DNA from: an uncultured Anaerolineales bacterium | Lineage (GTDB): Bacteria > Chloroflexota > Anaerolineae > B4-G1 | Length of the DNA stretch: 64,000 nucleotides | NCBI GenBank assembly: GCA_964551295.1 | Contig: CAZKDJ010000003.1 | Location: forward strand, 510 to 64,509 | Reading direction: 5' to 3' | Shown here: positions 16,436 to 40,607 of the stretch, in pieces | Layout: each line of letters opens with the position of its first letter | Position numbering within the stretch: the first letter of the stretch is position 1 | Translations under genes and position numbers: made by a program | Notes under the pieces: model-generated | The model's input: the letters and a program-made list of their open reading frames with translations, nothing else | Database searches by the model: none | Told to the model about the DNA's origin: nothing

Positions 16436-16483
16436 CGCTTGCTTGTCAAGCCGCTTGCTTGTCAAGCCGCTTGCTTGTCAAGC
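16436..16483. repeat. perfect 3 x 16-bp tandem repeat (cgcttgcttgtcaagc)3, each unit itself a small hairpin (gcttg/caagc)
   Basis: Read directly, in the divergent intergenic region between the TolB-like gene and the PSRP gene. Confidence 0.9.
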
Positions 16484-16528
16484 CGATGGCGATGGGCTAT
16501 ACTTGGACGGCATAGCGGAGGATCGAAC

Positions 16529-17320
16529 ATGAATCGCGTATTTGTGGTATCCGATGGTACGGGTGAGACGGCCGAGCGGGTCCTGAAAGCGGCGCTGGCG
16601 CAATTCGAGGGAGCGGCGGTCAAGATCGAGCGCCGGTCGGAGGTGCGCACCGAGGAGCAGGTGCGCCAGGTCGTGCATGAGGCCGCTCAAGCCGGCGGCT
16701 TTGTCGTCCATACGTTGGTCTCTGACGAGTTGCGCGACGAGATGGTGCGCGAGGGACGGCTGCAGAACGTCGAGACCATCGACCTGATGGGGCCGCTGCT
16801 GGCGCGACTTTCTCAGAAGTTTGCCGTCTCCCCATCCGAAAAGCCCGGTCTCTTTCGTCAATTGAACGAGGAGTACTTTCGGCGCATCGAGACGATGGAG
16901 TTTGCCTTCCATCACGACGATGGGCGGCGGGCCCACGAGCTCTCTCAGGCCGAGATCGTGCTGGTGGGCGTTTCACGCACGTTCAAGACCCCGCTGAGCA
17001 TCTATCTGGCGTTCCGGGGCTGGTTCGTCGCCAACGTGCCCATCGTGCCGGGGATCGCTCCGCCGCCGGAGCTATTTGCGCTGCCGCCAGGCCGCGTGAT
17101 CGGACTTACGATTGACCCGGTGAGGCTGGCGGAACTGCGGCGCGTGCGGGAGCAGCGTTTGGGCGGGGCTACGGGCGACTATGCTGATCTCGAATCCGTG
17201 CGCCGCGAGGTGGCATACGCGCTGCACCTCTTTCGCGAGCAGCGATGGCCCGTCGTCGAGGTGACCGACAAGCCCATTGAGGAAAGCGCCTCCGAGATTC
17301 TGGCGCTGGTGAGGAAATAG
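16529..17320 (+). CDS. PEP synthase / pyruvate-phosphate dikinase regulatory protein (bifunctional kinase-pyrophosphorylase, DUF299)
   Basis: MNRVFVVSDGTGETAE N-terminus and a GVSRTFKTP P-loop; GGAGGA RBS. The ORF-track N-terminal extension from 16151 is rejected. Confidence 0.85.
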   Translation: MNRVFVVSDGTGETAERVLKAALAQFEGAAVKIERRSEVRTEEQVRQVVHEAAQAGGFVVHTLVSDELRDEMVREGRLQNVETIDLMGPLLARLSQKFAVSPSEKPGLFRQLNEEYFRRIETMEFAFHHDDGRRAHELSQAEIVLVGVSRTFKTPLSIYLAFRGWFVANVPIVPGIAPPPELFALPPGRVIGLTIDPVRLAELRRVREQRLGGATGDYADLESVRREVAYALHLFREQRWPVVEVTDKPIEESASEILALVRK

Positions 17321-17324
17321 ATCA

Positions 17325-19976
17325 ATGCCCAAAGTGACTCCCGTGCGAAAACAGTATCTGCAGATCAAGGCCCAGCACCGGGATGCGATCGTCTTTTTCC
17401 GGCTGGGTGACTTTTACGAGACTTTTGACGAGGACGCCGAGATCGCCGCGCGCGAGCTGGACCTTGTCCTGACCTCGCGCCCGGTGGCCAAGAACCAGCG
17501 CGTGCCGATGGCGGGCGTGCCCCACCACGCCGTCGAGGGCTACGTCGCCCGCCTGATCGAGAAGGGCTACCGCGTGGCCATCGCTGAACAGGTGGGCGAG
17601 GTCACCGGCAAGGGGCTGGTGGCCCGCGAGGTGACGCGCGTGGTGACGCCCGGCACTGTCATCGAGCCGGCGCTGCTGGACGAGAAGCGGCCCAACTACC
17701 TGGCGGCGGTCGTGGTCGAAGAAGGGCGCGCCGGCCTGGCCTACACCGACATCACCACCGGCGAGTTCGCCACGGCCCAATTGGACGCAGACGCGGTGGC
17801 GCAGGAATTGGCGCGCCTACAGCCTCGTGAGTGTCTGATCCCCAAGGGGCAGGAAGCAGGGGGCAAGAAGCAAGAAACAGGTCGAGAATCTCCAATCTCC
17901 AATCTCCAATCCCTGGGCGCACACATCACGCCGCTTCAATCCTACCGCTTCGAACTCGGCGCTGCTCGCCAGGTACTCCTGGATCACTTTGAAGTGGCCA
18001 CGCTTGATGGCTTTGGCTGCGCGGGCAAGCCGCTGGCCATCCGGGCCGCCGGTGCCGTGCTCCACTACCTGCGCGAGACGCAGAAGGGGGCGCTGGCGCA
18101 GGTGGTCAGCCTCAGCACCTACACCACCGAGCGCTTTATGGTCCTCGACGCGGCCACGCGTCGCAATCTCGAGCTGGTCGAAACGATCCGTGAGCGCGCG
18201 AACGCAGGGCGTTCGAAGACTCGCGGTTCGCTCCTGGGCGTACTCGACCTGACGCTAACGCCGATGGGCGGGCGGTTGCTGCGGTCACGCCTGGCTCAGC
18301 CCTTGCTCGACCGGGGGGCGCTGGAGGCGCGCCTGGACGAGGTGCAGGCGTTCTACGACGACACCATCCTCCGTGGCCGCGTGCGCGAGATTCTCAAGGG
18401 GCTGCCCGATCTGGAGCGGCTGACCAATCGCGCTGTGGCAGGTATTGCGACGCCGCGTGACCTGGTGGGCATCAGGCGGGCACTGGAGGCTGCGCCGGAG
18501 TTGATAGAGGTGTTGAGACAAGGGGACAAGGAGACGAAGAGAGAAGGGGATGAAGCGACAATCATCCAATCTCCAATCTCCAATCTCCAATCCCTCGACC
18601 CCTGCGAGGACGTCGCTTCACTTATCGCCTCCGCCATCGCCGACGAACCCTCGGCCAGCGTCTCTGCCGGGGACGTCATCCGGAGCGGTTTCTCCGATGA
18701 GCTCGATGCCATTCTCACGGCGGCGCGGGACGCCAAGGCGTACATCGCCAACCTGGAGAAGGAGGAGCGCGAGCACACCGGTATCAAGAGCCTCAAGGTG
18801 GGTTACAATAAGGTGTTTGGCTATTACATCGAGGTCACCAAGGCGAACGTCGCTGCCGTGCCCGAATCGTACATCCGCAAGCAGACGCTGGTCAACGCCG
18901 AGCGCTACATCACGCCGGAGCTGAAGGAGTACGAGGCGCTGATCCTCAACGCCGAGGAGCGGCAGGTCGAGGTCGAGACGCGGCTGTTCAAGGAGATTTG
19001 CGGGCGGGTGGCGGCGCGGGGTGGTGCGCTGCTCAAGACCGCGCGGGCGCTGGCAAGGCTGGACGTGGCGTCGGCGCTGGCCGAGGTGGCCATCCGCAAC
19101 CGCTACGTGCGGCCCGAGCTGGCTGAAGACGACGTGCTGGAGATCGTCGATGGGCGGCACCCCGTCGTCGAAAAGGCGCTGTGCGACGAACCCTTCACCC
19201 CCAACGACCTGCACCTCAACGGCGACGAGCGCATCCTGGTCATCACCGGTCCGAACATGGCCGGCAAGTCGGTCTACCTGCGGCAGAACGCCTTGATCGT
19301 GCTGATGGCGCAGATGGGCAGCTTTGTGCCTGCCGACAGCGCGCGCATTGGCATTGTCGACCGTATCTTTACCCGCATCGGCGCGCAGGACGAGGTTGCC
19401 GCGGGCCAGTCGACGTTCATGGTCGAGATGGTCGAGGCGGCCAACATCCTCAACCACGCCACGCCGCGCAGCCTGCTCATCCTCGACGAGATCGGACGCG
19501 GCACCAGCACCTACGATGGGCTATCCATTGCCTGGGCCATGGTCGAGTACCTGCACAATCATCCCCAGCGGCGGTCGCGCACGCTGTTTGCCACCCACTA
19601 CCACGAACTGACCGAGCTGGCCGACCGACTGCCAACGGTGCGTAATTACAGCCTGGGGGTAATTGAGGAGGGAGATCACGTCGTCTTCTTGCACAAGGTC
19701 GAGCCCGGTGGGGCCGACCGCTCCTACGGCATCCACGTGGCGCAGATGGCGGGCGTGCCCAAGCCCGTCATCCACCGGGCGGAGGAGATGCTGGAGCAGT
19801 TGGAGAGCGGCGCGTTCCGCCCCGGCACCCCTGCACCGGAGCCGCGCCAGCCGGCGCTTTTCGCCACCGAGCACCCGGCGGTGGAGGAATTGTGCGCGTT
19901 GGACGTCTCGCAGATGACGCCGCTGGATGCGATCAACACGCTGTACGAGTTGCAGCGCAAGGCGCGGGAGGAATGA
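17325..19976 (+). CDS. mutS: DNA mismatch repair protein MutS
   Basis: 883 aa. Mismatch-binding N-terminus (FFRLGDFYETF), ABC ATPase with Walker A GPNMAGKS, and a C-terminal HTH. Contains two inserted SPISNLQSL peptides encoded by heptamer repeats. Confidence 0.95.
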   Translation: MPKVTPVRKQYLQIKAQHRDAIVFFRLGDFYETFDEDAEIAARELDLVLTSRPVAKNQRVPMAGVPHHAVEGYVARLIEKGYRVAIAEQVGEVTGKGLVAREVTRVVTPGTVIEPALLDEKRPNYLAAVVVEEGRAGLAYTDITTGEFATAQLDADAVAQELARLQPRECLIPKGQEAGGKKQETGRESPISNLQSLGAHITPLQSYRFELGAARQVLLDHFEVATLDGFGCAGKPLAIRAAGAVLHYLRETQKGALAQVVSLSTYTTERFMVLDAATRRNLELVETIRERANAGRSKTRGSLLGVLDLTLTPMGGRLLRSRLAQPLLDRGALEARLDEVQAFYDDTILRGRVREILKGLPDLERLTNRAVAGIATPRDLVGIRRALEAAPELIEVLRQGDKETKREGDEATIIQSPISNLQSLDPCEDVASLIASAIADEPSASVSAGDVIRSGFSDELDAILTAARDAKAYIANLEKEEREHTGIKSLKVGYNKVFGYYIEVTKANVAAVPESYIRKQTLVNAERYITPELKEYEALILNAEERQVEVETRLFKEICGRVAARGGALLKTARALARLDVASALAEVAIRNRYVRPELAEDDVLEIVDGRHPVVEKALCDEPFTPNDLHLNGDERILVITGPNMAGKSVYLRQNALIVLMAQMGSFVPADSARIGIVDRIFTRIGAQDEVAAGQSTFMVEMVEAANILNHATPRSLLILDEIGRGTSTYDGLSIAWAMVEYLHNHPQRRSRTLFATHYHELTELADRLPTVRNYSLGVIEEGDHVVFLHKVEPGGADRSYGIHVAQMAGVPKPVIHRAEEMLEQLESGAFRPGTPAPEPRQPALFATEHPAVEELCALDVSQMTPLDAINTLYELQRKAREE
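17887..17914 (+). repeat. in-frame heptanucleotide tandem repeat (aatctcc)3 + aatccct inside mutS, copy 1
   Basis: Read directly; encodes SPISNLQSL. Confidence 0.9.
18568..18595 (+). repeat. identical 28-bp heptamer-repeat tract inside mutS, copy 2 (681 bp downstream of copy 1, same phase)
   Basis: Read directly; the two 28-bp tracts are identical. Confidence 0.9.
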
Positions 19977-19986
19977 ATTGCTCCAA

Positions 19987-20045
19987 GGGGACGACAGTCC
20001 CCGTCTTGGCGATTTGAGTCGTGGCTGATGCGGACTATCGTCCGC
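19987..20045. repeat. REP-like hairpin doublet, upstream copy (GGGGACgacaGTCCCC ... GCGGACtatcGTCCGC)
   Basis: Two GC-rich palindromes about 27 nt apart; the same arrangement recurs downstream of the RAYT gene. Confidence 0.7.
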
Positions 20046-20121
20046 TTGGAGCGTTCGGTGGAAAGGGGGAGTAACGCTGACCAACTGGCGTCCAGACTTT
20101 GATCCGTCCCATCTGTACTTT

Positions 20122-20634
20122 GTGACGACCACCGCTGTCGACCACGCCCACATCTTTCGGCGGGACGTAGTCAAGCGCATCCTCGTCGACGGTCTGTATC
20201 ACCTGCACGTTGTGGACGGCATAGATCTGTATGCCTTCGTCGTTATGCCCAACCACGTTCACTTCATCGTTCGCTGCCGGGAGGATGATCCGCTGAAGGA
20301 CGTGATCCGGGATTTCAAGGCCAACACGGCGCGCCTCGTTGTGCGCCAGTATCAAGTTGAGGGCAACGAACAGGCGCTCGATTTTCTGGCCGCTGCCGTG
20401 AAGCGCCCGCAGAAGCAGCACTTCAAAGTGTGGGAGGATGGGTATCTTGCCAAGGATGTGTTCTCGCTAGACTTTTTGCGGCAAAAGATGGCGTACATCC
20501 ACAACAACCCAATTCAGCCGCAGTGGCAGTTGGTTGACCAAGCAGAGGAGTACGTCTGGTCGAGCACACGATTCTACTTGTTGGAAGAGCCGGCGCTGAT
20601 CCCGTTGAGTGATGCGCGGGAGCTGTTAGCATGA
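20122..20634 (+). mobile_element. REP-associated tyrosine transposase (RAYT; IS200/IS605-like TnpA_REP)
   Basis: HuH motif PNHVHFIV and a conserved Tyr region. The frame is open back to 20029 with no ATG, so the true N-terminus (LTNWRPDFDPSHLYFVTT) probably starts at a non-ATG codon around 20077. Confidence 0.8.
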
Positions 20635-20642
20635 GTGCTCTC

Positions 20643-20685
20643 GATGGACGACAGTCCATCGAAGCTGGCGCGGACTGTCGTCCGC
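20643..20685. repeat. REP-like hairpin doublet, downstream copy (GATGGACgacaGTCCATC ... GCGGACtgtcGTCCGC)
   Basis: Direct copy of the upstream doublet, including the trailing TT(G/C)GAGCG. Confidence 0.7.
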
Positions 20686-20699
20686 TTCGAGCGTGAATA

Positions 20700-38457: not shown

Positions 38458-39027
38458 ATGGACGAGCTTAAACGACGCATCCTGGCCGAAGGGCAGAATT
38501 TGGGTCAGGGTATTCTTAAGGTAGATAGTTTCCTCAACCACCAAGTCGATACGCACCTCATATTCAGGATTGGGCAGGAACTGGCCAGCCGCTTTGCCGA
38601 CGCCGGCGCGACGAAGGTTATGACCGCCGAGATTTCTGGCATCGCCCCGGCACTGGCGACGGCGCATGCGCTCGATGTGCCCGTCGTATACGCCCGCAAG
38701 ACGCGACCGGTCACCATGACGGGACCAGTCTTTGTCGAGGTCGCCCCCTCGCACACCAAGGGGGCGGATGCGTTCCTGATGGTGGCAGCCGAGTTCCTTG
38801 GGCCTGGGGATCGCGTGCTGGTGATCGACGATTTCCTAGCCTCGGGGTCGACGATCGACGCGCTGGTGCGACTGGTCGATCACGCCGGGGCGACGCTGGC
38901 GGGCATCGGCGCGGTGATCGAGAAGCGATTTGAACAAGGGCGCGAGGCGTTTGAGCACCTCAACGTGCCCATCGTGTCGCTGGCCGTCGTCGCCGACATG
39001 TCGGCAGGCAAGATCGTGTTGGAGTGA
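38458..39027 (+). CDS. xpt: xanthine phosphoribosyltransferase
   Basis: [31 protein letters not shown] and a PRPP-binding [13 protein letters not shown] motif. Confidence 0.9.
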
Positions 39028-40607
39028 CATTGAAGGACGCAATAGCCATTCTGGACTTTGGCTCGCAGTACACCCAATTGATCGCCCGCCGCGTGCGGGA
39101 AGCGCACGTCTACTGCGAGCTTTTTCCTTGGGATGCCCCAGCCGAGGACGTGCTGGCTTTGGCGCCACGGGGCTTTATCCTCTCCGGCGGTCCTGCCAGC
39201 GTCTATGCCTCCGACGCGCCCCACTTGCCCGCGTACGTGCTGGAGCGGGGTCTGCCTGTGCTGGGCATCTGCTACGGCATGCAGTTGCTGGCCTACCACC
39301 TGGGTGGCCACGTGGCCCGCGCCGAAAAGCGCGAGTACGGCCCGGCCGAGGTCGAGTTCGTCGGTCCGGAAGATCCCCTGCTTGGAAATCTCAAATCTCG
39401 AGCGCTCTCCGGTTGCCACTCAAATCTCAGCGTGTGGATGTCCCACGGTGACTCTATCGCAACCCCGCCGTCCGGCTTTGAGGTGCTGGCCCGCAGCGCC
39501 AACTCCCCTGTAGCGGCGATGGGTGACCTGGCGCGGGGATTCTACGGCCTCCAGTTTCACCCCGAGGTCGTGCACACTCAGCATGGCGACGAGATCCTGC
39601 GCAGCTTTGCCGTTGACGTCTGCGGCTGCGCGCCCGACTGGACGCCGGCCGCCTTCATCGAGCAGGCGGTGGCCGCGATCGGCGAGCAGGTGGGGGCCGG
39701 TCGCGTGGTGTGCGGGCTCAGCGGCGGGGTCGATTCCGCCGTGGCGGCGACGCTCGTGCACCGCGCCGTGGGCGATCAACTGACCTGCATCTTTGTCAAC
39801 CACGGGCTGCTACGCCGGGGCGAGCAGGAGCAGGTCGTGCGCGCCTTCCGCGACCGGGGGATGCACCTGGTGCCGGTGGATGCGACGGAAGAGTTCCTCG
39901 GCGCCCTCGCCGGCGTCACGGACCCCGAGCAGAAGCGGCGCATTATCGGCGAGCGGTTTGTCCGCATCTTTGAGCAGCAGGCGGCAAAACTGGATGACGG
40001 CGCAAGTCGCGTGCGGTTTCTGGCCCAGGGCACACTCTACCCCGACGTGATCGAAAGCGCGGCCACCGGGCGAGATGGTGCGGCTGTTATTAAGCATCAT
40101 CATAACGTGGGAGGATTGCCTAAGGACATGCAGTTTGAGTTGGTCGAACCGGTGAGAAATTTGTTCAAGGACGAGGTTCGACAGATTGGTAAAGTTCTGG
40201 GTCTGCCTCACGAGTTGATCGGGCGACACCCTTTCCCTGGCCCCGGACTAGCGGTGCGGATACCAGGCGAGATTACGTGGGAACGACTAGAGACGTTGCG
40301 AGACGCTGATGCGATCTTTCTCCAGGAGCTTGCGTCATCGGGTTGGTATGATCAAGTAGGACAAGCATTTGCCGTTTTGTTGCCTGAAGCCCTTTCGACA
40401 GGAGTGGCTGGGGATGAAAGCAGGTTCGGACAAACGATTGTGCTTAGAGCGGTCGAAACTGACGATTTCATGACCGCTTCGCCAGCTTTATTGCCCTACA
40501 CTCTACTAACCAAGGTGAGCACGCGTATTCTCAATGAAGTCGATGGTATCACGCGAGTAGTTTATGATCTTTCTACAAAGCCCCCCGCGACTATTGAGTG
40601 GCTTTAG
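39024..40607 (+). CDS. guaA: GMP synthase (glutamine-hydrolysing)
   Basis: GATase with catalytic Cys in GICYGMQ, and an ATP-PPase domain with SGGVDSAV; the C-terminus ...PPATIEWL is intact. Confidence 0.95.

Follow-up and report, generated by a model that had tools for sequence, protein, structure and literature searches.

The mutS gene of the window (the whole 64,000-nucleotide stretch of DNA that was analysed) carries two identical heptanucleotide tracts, and we consider it probable, at roughly 0.7, that these are passenger copies of a dispersed, STRR-like repeat family (GGAGATT/AATCTCC)—translated along with the host gene and without a dedicated role in MutS. The features on which this reading is based are the following.

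17325..19976, + strand: mutS coding sequence, 883 aa (ORF list, translation, Pfam MutS_I-V, E. coli MutS match).
17850..17886, + strand: decayed purine-rich heptamer segment of the AAGCAGG type, adjoining the 5' side of the site-1 tract (DNA alignment, TRF row 17846-17872).
17887..17914, + strand: site-1 heptamer tract, (AATCTCC)3+AATCCCT, encoding SPISNLQSL at aa 188-196 (sequence, translation, TRF).
18530..18592 (boundaries +/-3 nt), + strand: site-2 insert of about 63 nt, or 9 heptamer lengths (alignment to the empty sites of relatives L209 and L210).
18568..18595, + strand: site-2 heptamer tract, (AATCTCC)3+AATCCCT, encoding SPISNLQSL at aa 415-423 (sequence, translation, TRF).

Judged from its sequence, the host appears to be an intact five-domain MutS1 mismatch-repair gene. 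All of Pfam MutS_I, II, III, IV, and V score above cut-off and stand in order; E. coli MutS matches residues 5-877 with E=2.5e-195, and the translation contains the F-x-E mismatch motif (GDFYETF), Walker A (GPNMAGKS), and LDEIGRGTS (DEIGRGT). A first-pass annotation had described two identical, in-phase 28-nt tracts 681 nt apart, and the sequence, TRF, and four contigs bear this out: AATCTCCAATCTCCAATCTCCAATCCCT is found at 17887-17914 and again at 18568-18595, the same in 28/28 nt, with starts 681 nt (227 codons) apart and both copies in the mutS frame. The identity between the two sites ends exactly at the tract edges—the flanks are unlike—and, for a period of 7, TRF gives copy numbers of 3.6 and 4.7. 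The encoded SPISNLQSL was correctly placed in the connector and lever regions; site 1 lies within MutS_II (connector, aa 124-258), and site 2 within MutS_III (core/lever, aa 277-586), shortly before MutS_IV (aa 455-546). Two further JGI contigs have the same mutS DNA as the window (0/2652 differences), and in a fourth contig MutS differs by one residue, outside the tracts. We rejected an assembly artefact on the grounds that the four contigs agree and that orthologues bear the same tracts.

Within the window the repeat is confined to mutS. With at most one mismatch allowed, the 14-mer (AATCTCC)2 has four overlapping matches, all at the two mutS loci, against 0.05 expected; none of 100 shuffles reached four. 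A lag-7 periodicity scan found no further array of at least 3 units in the 64 kb, and TRF was concordant. The same holds for close relatives: in about 70 kb of their syntenic flanking sequence, all arrays again fall within mutS. The chance of two arrays in one 2.65-kb gene of 64 kb is about 4%, and mutS looks over-represented as an array host in the sampled DNA of the lineage.

The two sites differ in their surroundings. At site 1, alignment with L083 and L087 shows the first 27 nt of the upstream segment (17850-17876) to be an indel; L088 has (AAGCAGG AAGCAGG AAGCAAG)n at this place, encoding KQEAGSR repeats. Folding potential is low here (z = +0.86); as the tract and its upstream arm are built from units of different families, site 1 is not a canonical hairpin. 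The site-2 insert consists of a degenerate purine-rich 5' arm, then a short loop, then the AATCTCC arm, and an imperfect hairpin within 18500-18610 has z-scores of -2.2 (+ strand) and -2.5 (- strand). A search of Rfam over the tracts gave no match; its only hits were sub-threshold ones to mir-278, on a REPIN hairpin at 19980-20052.

Outside the window the unit is common. At least 120 stretches of (AATCTCC)3 occur in species genomes, and 63 of the 80 listed are from Chloroflexota; several genomes supply 3-6 loci each among the matches listed, with up to 6 from one chromosome. AATCTCC arrays beyond mutS are absent from the window's 64 kb and plentiful in related Chloroflexota genomes; it is in those relatives that dispersal was observed, the window's own genome having been sampled over 64 kb only. 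Among 130 AATCTCC arrays, the unit count is 3 in 101, 4 in 21, 5 in 6, 7 in one, and 14 in one. A GGAGATT-type arm lies upstream of 49 arrays (convergent) and downstream of 2 (divergent). The frequent convergent hairpin form, (GGAGATT)n-loop-(AATCTCC)n, has a median loop of 13 nt, and the loops are not conserved—across elements, arm length (2-15 units) and loop length (1-62 nt) both vary from locus to locus, and the loops are unrelated.

Many of these arrays are translated. In a random sample of 20, 10 were inside Pfam-verified proteins and the other 10 at or upstream of gene starts; in 10/10 long ORFs chosen for inspection, Pfam domains flank the array on both sides. Hosts with (AATCTCC)n in frame include PFK, carbamoyl-phosphate synthase, PBP1, RecD2, a UvrD-type helicase, HypF, QueG, and an E2 acyltransferase, among others, and in conserved enzymes the translated arrays usually occupy loops or domain linkers. 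The tracts had been called unusual for a repair gene, a view that this finding does not support, as the same (AATCTCC)n is dispersed in Chloroflexota and lies in frame in many enzymes. A search of 5.8 billion proteins with (SPISNLQ)6 gave 17 weak matches, mostly to short hypothetical ORFs; the query is ill-suited to short in-frame arrays. In the literature searched we did not find AATCTCCAATCTCC in bacteria, nor the term "heptanucleotide repeat" paired with Chloroflexi. The heptameric kind of repeat is already known; that it so often sits in frame within Chloroflexota genes appears not to have been described.

The coding properties of the unit help explain how such arrays persist inside genes: AATCTCC/GGAGATT has no stop codon on either strand, and all reading frames of a 7-nt repeat give one cyclic peptide, here NLQSPIS or GDWRLEI. 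We rejected stop-freedom as a special property of the unit, since the absence of stop codons from both strands is shared by about 50% of all heptamers; it is necessary and unremarkable.

Comparison of orthologues indicates that the two MutS sites are variable loops filled in different ways. The orthologue set comprised 120 MutS at >=72% identity (the best-ranked homologues), among which site 1 ranges from 14 to 56 aa and site 2 from 19 to 87 aa. Alignment to E. coli MutS leaves gaps of 9 and 12 aa at the two insert sites. At the DNA level L209 is without both inserts and L210 without the site-2 insert; relative to these empty sites the window inserts are 42 and 63 nt, in frame and stop-free. 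The inserts are lineage-variable and their sites indel hot-spots; almost every orthologue of the clade bears some insert at both. Five-residue words of heptamer peptides occur in 12-24 of the 120 orthologues, from the units AATCTCC, AAGCAGG, ATGCAGG, CCTGCAT, and CATCCAG, and the DNA of L083-L088 verifies the heptamer units read from the loop peptides. An orthologue at 57% identity (L018) has (CAATCAG)4 at site 2. An AlphaFold model shows residues 177-190 and 403-420 as coil with pLDDT <50; the model is poor overall (mean pLDDT 55), and its support for the loop character of both sites is weak.

Among close relatives, change is by substitution or by whole elements. The orthologous site-1 tract has 4 units in L083, L085, L087, and L210, with point changes; relatives at 82-88% nucleotide identity keep the 4 units and vary by substitution, as in L083, where the tract reads AATCTCC AATACCC AATCTCC AATCTCT and the repeat is interrupted. 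At site 2 an AATCTCC-type tract is also found in L083 and L087, and an ATGCAGG/CCTGCAT hairpin takes its place in L085 and L086. All length differences between orthologues are multiples of 3, in the form of whole elements or swaps of unit family, never +/-7 nt. By hand count, about 18 substitutions fall in the tracts against about 23 expected from gene-wide identities, with no clear signal of extra conservation. A scan of metagenomes for mutS relatives gave matches only at <=65% identity. Both window tracts are perfect and identical, set against the decay in relatives; the tracts may have been homogenised recently, or selection may keep the repeat perfect.

We therefore favor the following account of the mutS tracts as passengers. 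The GGAGATT/AATCTCC family is abundant in Chloroflexota of the Anaerolineae, Ardenticatenia, and Caldilineae groups, typically with 3-4 units, and an array may persist in a gene when it spans a multiple of 3 nt and the loop or linker that receives it tolerates the added residues. Two such permissive places in the MutS of this clade—one a loop of the connector domain, the other in the core/lever region ahead of the clamp—were probably occupied repeatedly by several unit families. At site 2, decay of the partner arm would have left codons for charged residues. We predict that the arrays are translated as short, probably disordered loop insertions, and that over evolutionary time whole elements are gained, lost, or replaced in frame while single bases are substituted; we take the insertions to be neutral. 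Slippage or template switching, favored by the hairpins that the repeats form, is the likely origin of the arrays, or else an insertion process of some kind. Counting against this account are the confinement of arrays to mutS in the window and in the flanks of relatives, the perfection and identity of the two window tracts, and the lack of a canonical hairpin at site 1.

The first-pass annotation had proposed the tracts as a plausible contingency locus, in which slipped-strand mispairing of +/-7 nt frameshifts mutS and produces a reversible mutator subpopulation; in its full form the model would have selection keep the tracts for this role. In its favor, the repeat is a non-triplet unit in an ORF, and gain or loss of one unit at either site is predicted to truncate MutS at 224-530 aa, ahead of the ATPase domain. 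The perfection of both window tracts, the position of mutS as sole array host in the sampled DNA of the lineage, and a reported three-copy precedent in (GCTGGC)3 of Salmonella/E. coli mutL (PMC2955026) also speak for it. The behavior expected of a switch, however, was not seen. Three perfect units are the modal and minimal size of the family, the unit count is the same in all four assemblies, and among these and the close relatives compared we found neither unit-number polymorphism nor a tract much longer than background. Close relatives either lack inserts or interrupt their four-unit tracts by substitution; since such tracts are natural "locked" alleles, repeat perfection is not maintained. 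No frameshifted or +/-7-nt mutS allele was present in the sampled relatives or among the best 120 homologues, below which truncated products would rank. Arrays of the same kind also lie in essential genes of related genomes, and in housekeeping hosts of the PFK type a switch role would be senseless. In H. influenzae, the heptanucleotide tracts described or proposed as phase-variable have 13-38 copies, and for its short SSRs, variation by substitution rather than unit number was judged inconsistent with phase variation (PMC2651432). We judge a selected switch improbable; a rare slippage-driven mutator state in mutS is physically possible and unsupported. The same annotation proposed that exchange between the identical 28-nt tracts would excise an in-frame segment of 681 bp and, with it, 227 aa of the connector and lever. 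A MutS short of these connector and core parts would be defective. The prediction stands in so far as the direct repeats are perfect, 681 nt apart, and the product would be an in-frame protein of 656 aa; furthermore, the fourth unit at site 1 (AATCCCT) matches site 2 and is unlike site 1 of every relative examined, which hints at exchange between the tracts. Against this, a length of 28 nt is at the lower limit for RecA-dependent exchange. The deletion itself has no counterpart—no MutS of about 656 aa occurs among the 120 best homologues, whose lengths are 765-1306—and relatives have non-identical tracts or another element at site 2. As the deletion would be irreversible, it would amount to loss and not a switch, and we hold this outcome to be extremely unlikely.

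Of the remaining alternatives, arrival of the arrays as preformed hairpins by enzyme-driven insertion (in the manner of a MITE, Rickettsia palindromic element, or REPIN, possibly mobilised by the neighboring RAYT) is possible, and on balance rather doubtful. Whole elements are present or absent with clean empty sites, orientation is strict (the 49 convergent versus 2 divergent pairs), one and the same site can hold elements of different families among close relatives, and 146 nt separate mutS from a RAYT-like gene on its downstream side (NCBIfam NF047646, E=2.6e-20). Against this, no conserved unit is being copied, since each locus has its own loop and arm length; no target-site duplications were noted in a non-systematic look, and homologous exchange between populations would explain the mosaic pattern scored along mutS just as well. 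REPIN hairpins flank the RAYT itself, and their REP core GGACGACAGTCC, in 4 copies at 19989-20683, bears no likeness to the heptamer unit, and the gene is missing beside mutS in L083, L087, L088, L209, and L210; we therefore rejected the adjoining RAYT as mobiliser. Retention of the inserts for some benefit, whether they serve MutS as interaction sites or flexible linkers rich in Ser/Pro, or form an mRNA/DNA hairpin that regulates mutS expression, would agree with the near-universal presence of some insert at both sites and with folding at site 2 that is better than in shuffles (the z-scores given above, and z = -4.0 with 0/200 shuffles for the strong hairpin of the alternative L085 element). 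Yet insert sequence, unit family, and length vary freely, L209 does without inserts, and the same peptides recur in unrelated enzymes. The hairpin signal at site 2 likewise falls from -2.2 in the window to -1.15 in L083 and +0.47 in L087; being modest in the window and absent from these two relatives, a conserved RNA/DNA hairpin was rejected, and we regard a selected function as quite improbable. A more speculative proposal, which we rate as a long shot, is that heptamer hairpins do not stem from slippage and that a dedicated process writes them: G-rich 7-nt repeats would be added to the 3' ends on either side of a DNA break before rejoining, by telomerase-like or template-switching repair. 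Such writing would account for the G-rich arm being 5' on both strands and for the short, unique loops, as well as for the recurrence of one architecture in Chloroflexota, Xanthomonas, and cyanobacteria, each with units of its own. Were it true, the translated inserts at about half of the sites would be repair scars inside genes and the two MutS loops recurrent targets, and transient impairment of MutS might aid the spread of the repeat.

Known systems resemble the passenger family in part. Heptameric repeats of the GGGAATC type in Xanthomonas and the STRR-type GGGGA(T/C)T in Nostoc PCC 7120 are dispersed and prefer 4 units; Xanthomonas has 70-75 convergent inverted pairs per genome and Nostoc only a few (PMC4692102, Rehm et al. 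2015). The Chloroflexota family is alike in its tandem 7-nt unit, its many dispersed copies in related genomes, its short modal length of about 3-4 units, and its convergent pairs, and GGAGATT is one base different from the STRR-type GGGGATT. It is unlike these repeats in its host phylum and in its broken G-run, with which we would expect no G-quadruplex; it is also not predominantly intergenic, as both window copies are in frame in mutS and half of the sampled arrays are in proteins. Rickettsia palindromic elements (RPEs; PMC10969869) share the property of a translated palindromic repeat in unrelated conserved proteins at fold-compatible positions, with filled and empty sites, and the mutS insertions are similarly in frame and stop-free. 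RPEs, however, are about 150 bp, fall into families, and have a conserved peptide, whereas the Chloroflexota elements are tandem 7-nt units of variable number with unique loops and include no conserved full-length element.

Systems in which repeats act as switches differ more clearly. The SSR contingency loci of H. influenzae (hmw1A/hmw2A, with (AATTTTG)14 inside an hmw1A ORF; PMC2651432) are also non-triplet tandem repeats in an ORF, with 13-38 units versus 3 in mutS, and mutS is a housekeeping gene rather than one for surface or restriction-modification functions. In Salmonella/E. coli, the (GCTGGC)3 repeat of mutL has been reported as a spontaneous mutability switch (PMC2955026, Chen et al. 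2010). It resembles the mutS tracts in having three short tandem copies in a mismatch-repair gene and in inactivation of the protein by a one-copy change (predicted for mutS). The 6-bp mutL unit, in contrast, gives an in-frame change that alters the ATP lid, and the repeat is perfect across Salmonella, Escherichia, and Shigella (PMC2955026); the mutS tracts are interrupted or absent in close relatives and part of a genome-wide family. REP/REPIN sequences and their RAYTs (PMC3116915) are likewise short, dispersed, and hairpin-forming, and the RAYT-like gene with its REPIN hairpins lies directly 3' of mutS; their core is unrelated to AATCTCC/GGAGATT, REPs are extragenic, and we found no link between RAYT and heptamer.

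These comparisons place the GGAGATT/AATCTCC family close to the STRR and Xanthomonas repeats in form and to the Rickettsia palindromic elements in location. When a repeat occupies many genes of a lineage, its occurrence in mutS as well does not in itself point to a mutator switch. The translated arrays offer a large collection of natural cases in which a peptide insertion is tolerated, and the arrays are strain-typing markers for the Chloroflexota of activated sludge and sediment. Finally, their strict convergent orientation and the repeated use of two MutS loops bear on the question of how dispersed bacterial heptamers arise.

The 28-nt sequence AATCTCCAATCTCCAATCTCCAATCCCT is present twice in the window, and a sequence search places both copies inside the mismatch-repair gene mutS:

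17325-19976 (+): mutS, an ORF of 883 aa with Pfam MutS_I-V and the usual motifs
17887-17914 (+): site-1 tract, reading SPISNLQSL (aa 188-196), in MutS_II
18568-18595 (+): site-2 tract, reading SPISNLQSL (aa 415-423), in MutS_III directly ahead of MutS_IV

E. coli MutS matches the product at E=2.5e-195. The tracts lie 681 nt (227 codons) apart, are perfect and mutually identical, and are given a period of 7 by TRF. With at most one mismatch allowed, the 14-mer (AATCTCC)2 matches the 64-kb window at the two mutS loci only—four matches against 0.05 expected by chance, a count reached in 0 of 100 shuffles—and a lag-7 scan of the same 64 kb found no other array of at least three units. The mutS DNA of two JGI contigs shows 0 differences from the window over 2652 positions, and the MutS protein of a fourth contig carries a single substitution, P173S, outside the tracts; since these contigs agree, the doubled tract is real and reproducible. 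The fourth unit of site 1, AATCCCT, is the site-2 version and is unlike site 1 of every relative examined, a match that hints at exchange between the sites.

When 55 close MutS homologues (75-91% identity) from Anaerolineae/Chloroflexota MAGs were aligned, only two segments were strongly length-variable, and each holds one tract. Among the best 120 homologues, the distance between conserved anchors at site 1 ranges over 14-56 residues and at site 2 over 19-87; the variable peptides at both sites are heptamer arrays in translation. KQEAGSR comes from (AAGCAGG)3, MQDAGSK from approximately (ATGCAGG)n, SCILHLA from (CCTGCAT)n, HPASSIQ from (CATCCAG)3, and SPISNLQ from (TCTCCAA)3, with five-residue words of each cyclic peptide found in 12-24 of the 120 proteins. 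The DNA of relatives bears this coding out: contig L088 has (AAGCAGG AAGCAGG AAGCAAG)n at site 1 and, at site 2, about seven 21-nt units of ATGCAGG type followed by a complementary CCTGC-type arm; L085/L086 have a perfect 15-nt inverted repeat at site 2, AAGATGCAGGATGCA...TGCATCCTGCATCTT (fold z = -4.0); and (CAATCAG)4 stands there in L018, an orthologue of 57% identity. Immediately 5' of this last array, at about 1240-1351 of L018, a 48-nt tandem duplication encodes HPALPIGKPPMEREDT twice, so site 2 draws other repeat kinds too.

Empty sites are also found: by DNA alignment, L209 is without either insert and L210 without that at site 2, the window exceeding L209/L210 by 42 nt at site 1 and 63 nt at site 2. 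Together with the range of lengths, they bear out the lineage variability considered in the first-pass annotation. Alignment to E. coli MutS leaves gaps of 9 and 12 residues at these sites, and an AlphaFold model that is poor overall shows coil of low confidence at residues 177-190 and 403-420. All length differences seen at the sites are multiples of three, as expected of translated inserts. Every combination of site-1 and site-2 states occurs among close relatives; in a sliding-window comparison of mutS, the window scores closest to L085 near site 1; near site 2 it scores closest to L083 or L087, a result to which the different element of L085 contributes in part. Such a mosaic would fit homologous exchange between populations and repeated insertion and loss equally well. 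The hairpin signal at site 2 is of modest strength in the window (z = -2.2), and L083 and L087 have lost it; this speaks against a structural role that is conserved. Elsewhere in these sequences, two MutS orthologues (P0019 and P0120; 1295-1306 aa) carry domains of intein and LAGLIDADG type (PF14890, PF14528) within MutS, and L209 has about 24 G followed directly by about 24 C close to its contig end (17448-17501), probably an assembly or sequencing artefact.

AATCTCC contains no stop codon on either strand and, because 7 and 3 have no common factor, the three frames of an array yield one cyclic 7-residue peptide; an array therefore fits an ORF if the total inserted length is divisible by 3. 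A scan for (AATCTCC)3 that took a single genome from each prokaryotic species gave at least 120 stretches. Chloroflexota account for 63 of the 80 loci among the matches listed (Ardenticatenaceae, Caldilineaceae, Promineifilaceae/Ca. Leptofilum, Anaerolineae), several genomes giving 3-6 loci each; the remaining 17 fall in some Bacteroidota, Verrucomicrobiota (Luteolibacter), Acidobacteriota, and Gemmatimonadota genomes. The 130 recovered arrays have 3 (101 arrays), 4 (21), 5 (6), 7 (1), or 14 (1) perfect units. They are typically found in hairpins of the form (RGAGATT)n - short unique loop - (AATCTCY)n, with a median loop of 13 nt; the GGAGATT-type arm lies 5' of 49 arrays and 3' of only 2, a strict convergent orientation. 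Further heptamer families adjoin the arrays at these loci (L089-L208): CAGTGAA/CAGTAAA, GGTGAGG, CAGTAAT, and ATCTCCC.

Many arrays lie within genes. In ten long array-bearing ORFs picked by eye, Pfam domains flank the array on both sides in all ten; these include class A PBP, phosphofructokinase, DUF2298, an NRPS module, carbamoyl-phosphate synthase large subunit, HemN, molybdopterin oxidoreductase, class I tRNA synthetase (Luteolibacter MAG), and RecD2. A random sample of 20 arrays placed 10 within Pfam-verified proteins (HypF, flavoprotein, DUF2298, PFK, RecD2, E2 acyltransferase, UvrD-type helicase, QueG, asparaginase) and the other 10 at or just 5' of gene starts or in non-coding DNA. Genic arrays encode ...RLEIGDWRL...NLQSPIS..., mostly at interdomain linkers. 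The repeat had been thought unusual for a repair gene; its dispersal in Chloroflexota, inside many other genes, contradicts this.

What survives of the first-pass annotation is an inserted, lineage-variable repeat element at indel hot-spots; no evidence supports its proposal that slippage by one 7-nt unit makes mutS a reversible mutator switch. The physical premise is sound—a change by one unit, up or down, at either site is predicted to frameshift mutS and truncate MutS at 224-530 aa, and pairing a gain at one site with a loss at the other is predicted not to restore it—and in Salmonella/E. coli mutL a 6-bp repeat present in three copies has been proposed as a mutability switch (PMC2955026). 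However, three perfect units are merely the modal size of the AATCTCC family, whereas H. influenzae heptanucleotide tracts called or proposed phase-variable have 13-38 copies (PMC2651432). Tract-bearing relatives (82-88% nucleotide identity) keep four units, but substitutions interrupt the repeat: site 1 reads AATCTCC AATACCC AATCTCC AATCTCT in L083 and AATCCCC AATCCCC GATCTCC AATCGCT in L087, and site 2 of L083 reads GATCTCC AATCTCC GATCTCC AATCCCT. These are natural 'locked' alleles; change by substitution in short H. influenzae SSRs was judged inconsistent with phase variation (PMC2651432). Moreover, the inserts are wholly absent in other close relatives, the unit count is the same in four assemblies, and the array is tolerated within essential genes of related organisms. 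A 681-bp deletion between the tracts, also proposed, is predicted to leave an in-frame product of 656 aa, but no such MutS occurs among the homologues listed, and the deletion would be irreversible. All these comparisons are of assembled sequences, and slippage at a low rate may still occur.

We consider it probable (about 0.7) that the mutS tracts are passengers: copies of a dispersed, STRR-like heptamer repeat that two permissive loops of MutS have retained. Among described repeats, the dispersed heptameric SSRs of Nostoc and Xanthomonas come closest: GGGGA(T/C)T (STRR type) and GGGAATC, respectively, are dispersed with four units preferred, and convergent inverted pairs number 70-75 per Xanthomonas genome (GGGAATC) and only a few in Nostoc (PMC4692102). 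The Chloroflexota AATCTCC arrays share convergent arm pairs with Xanthomonas GGGAATC; a single base separates GGAGATT from the Nostoc unit and breaks the G-run. Rickettsia palindromic elements (PMC10969869) resemble the Chloroflexota heptamer family in placement, but the latter has no conserved full-length element. Our literature search found neither AATCTCC/GGAGATT arrays in bacteria nor heptanucleotide repeats in Chloroflexi.

Other repeats lie near mutS:

16436-16485: perfect 16-nt tandem repeat, (CGCTTGCTTGTCAAGC) x3.1
19980-20052: REPIN-type hairpin (z = -7.7), flanking the RAYT-like gene
20122-20634 (+): REP-associated tyrosine transposase (RAYT)-like gene (NCBIfam NF047646, Pfam Y1_Tnp), 146 nt 3' of mutS
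about 20640-20690: REPIN-type hairpin (z = -4.0), flanking the RAYT-like gene

The REPIN/RAYT system is unrelated to the heptamers. Its gene scores 72.8 bits for NF047646, under the cut-off of 80, and 33 bits for Y1_Tnp; both hairpins are made of GGACGACAGTCC x four, and the gene adjoins mutS in L081 and L085/L086 and is missing there in L083, L087, L088, L209, and L210. The 16-nt repeat lies in the intergenic region between two divergent genes, one for a Tricorn-like protease (-) and one for a kinase/pyrophosphorylase (ATG at 16530); each unit holds the palindrome GCTTGACAAGC, and the array might serve as operator or promoter.

In the window's guaA (ORF 39024-40607), AAATCTC occurs three times at 39386-39440, two of the copies in tandem, just 5' of the conserved WMSHGD motif of GMP synthase; the same loop of GuaA in L177 holds a full RDWRLEIGD...SPISNLQ heptamer element, and the window copies may be what decay has left of an in-frame array. 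Across the window and about 70 kb of mutS flanks in close relatives, all 7-nt-period arrays lie inside mutS—either the lineage is array-poor, with old arrays kept in mutS, or mutS is a favoured host.
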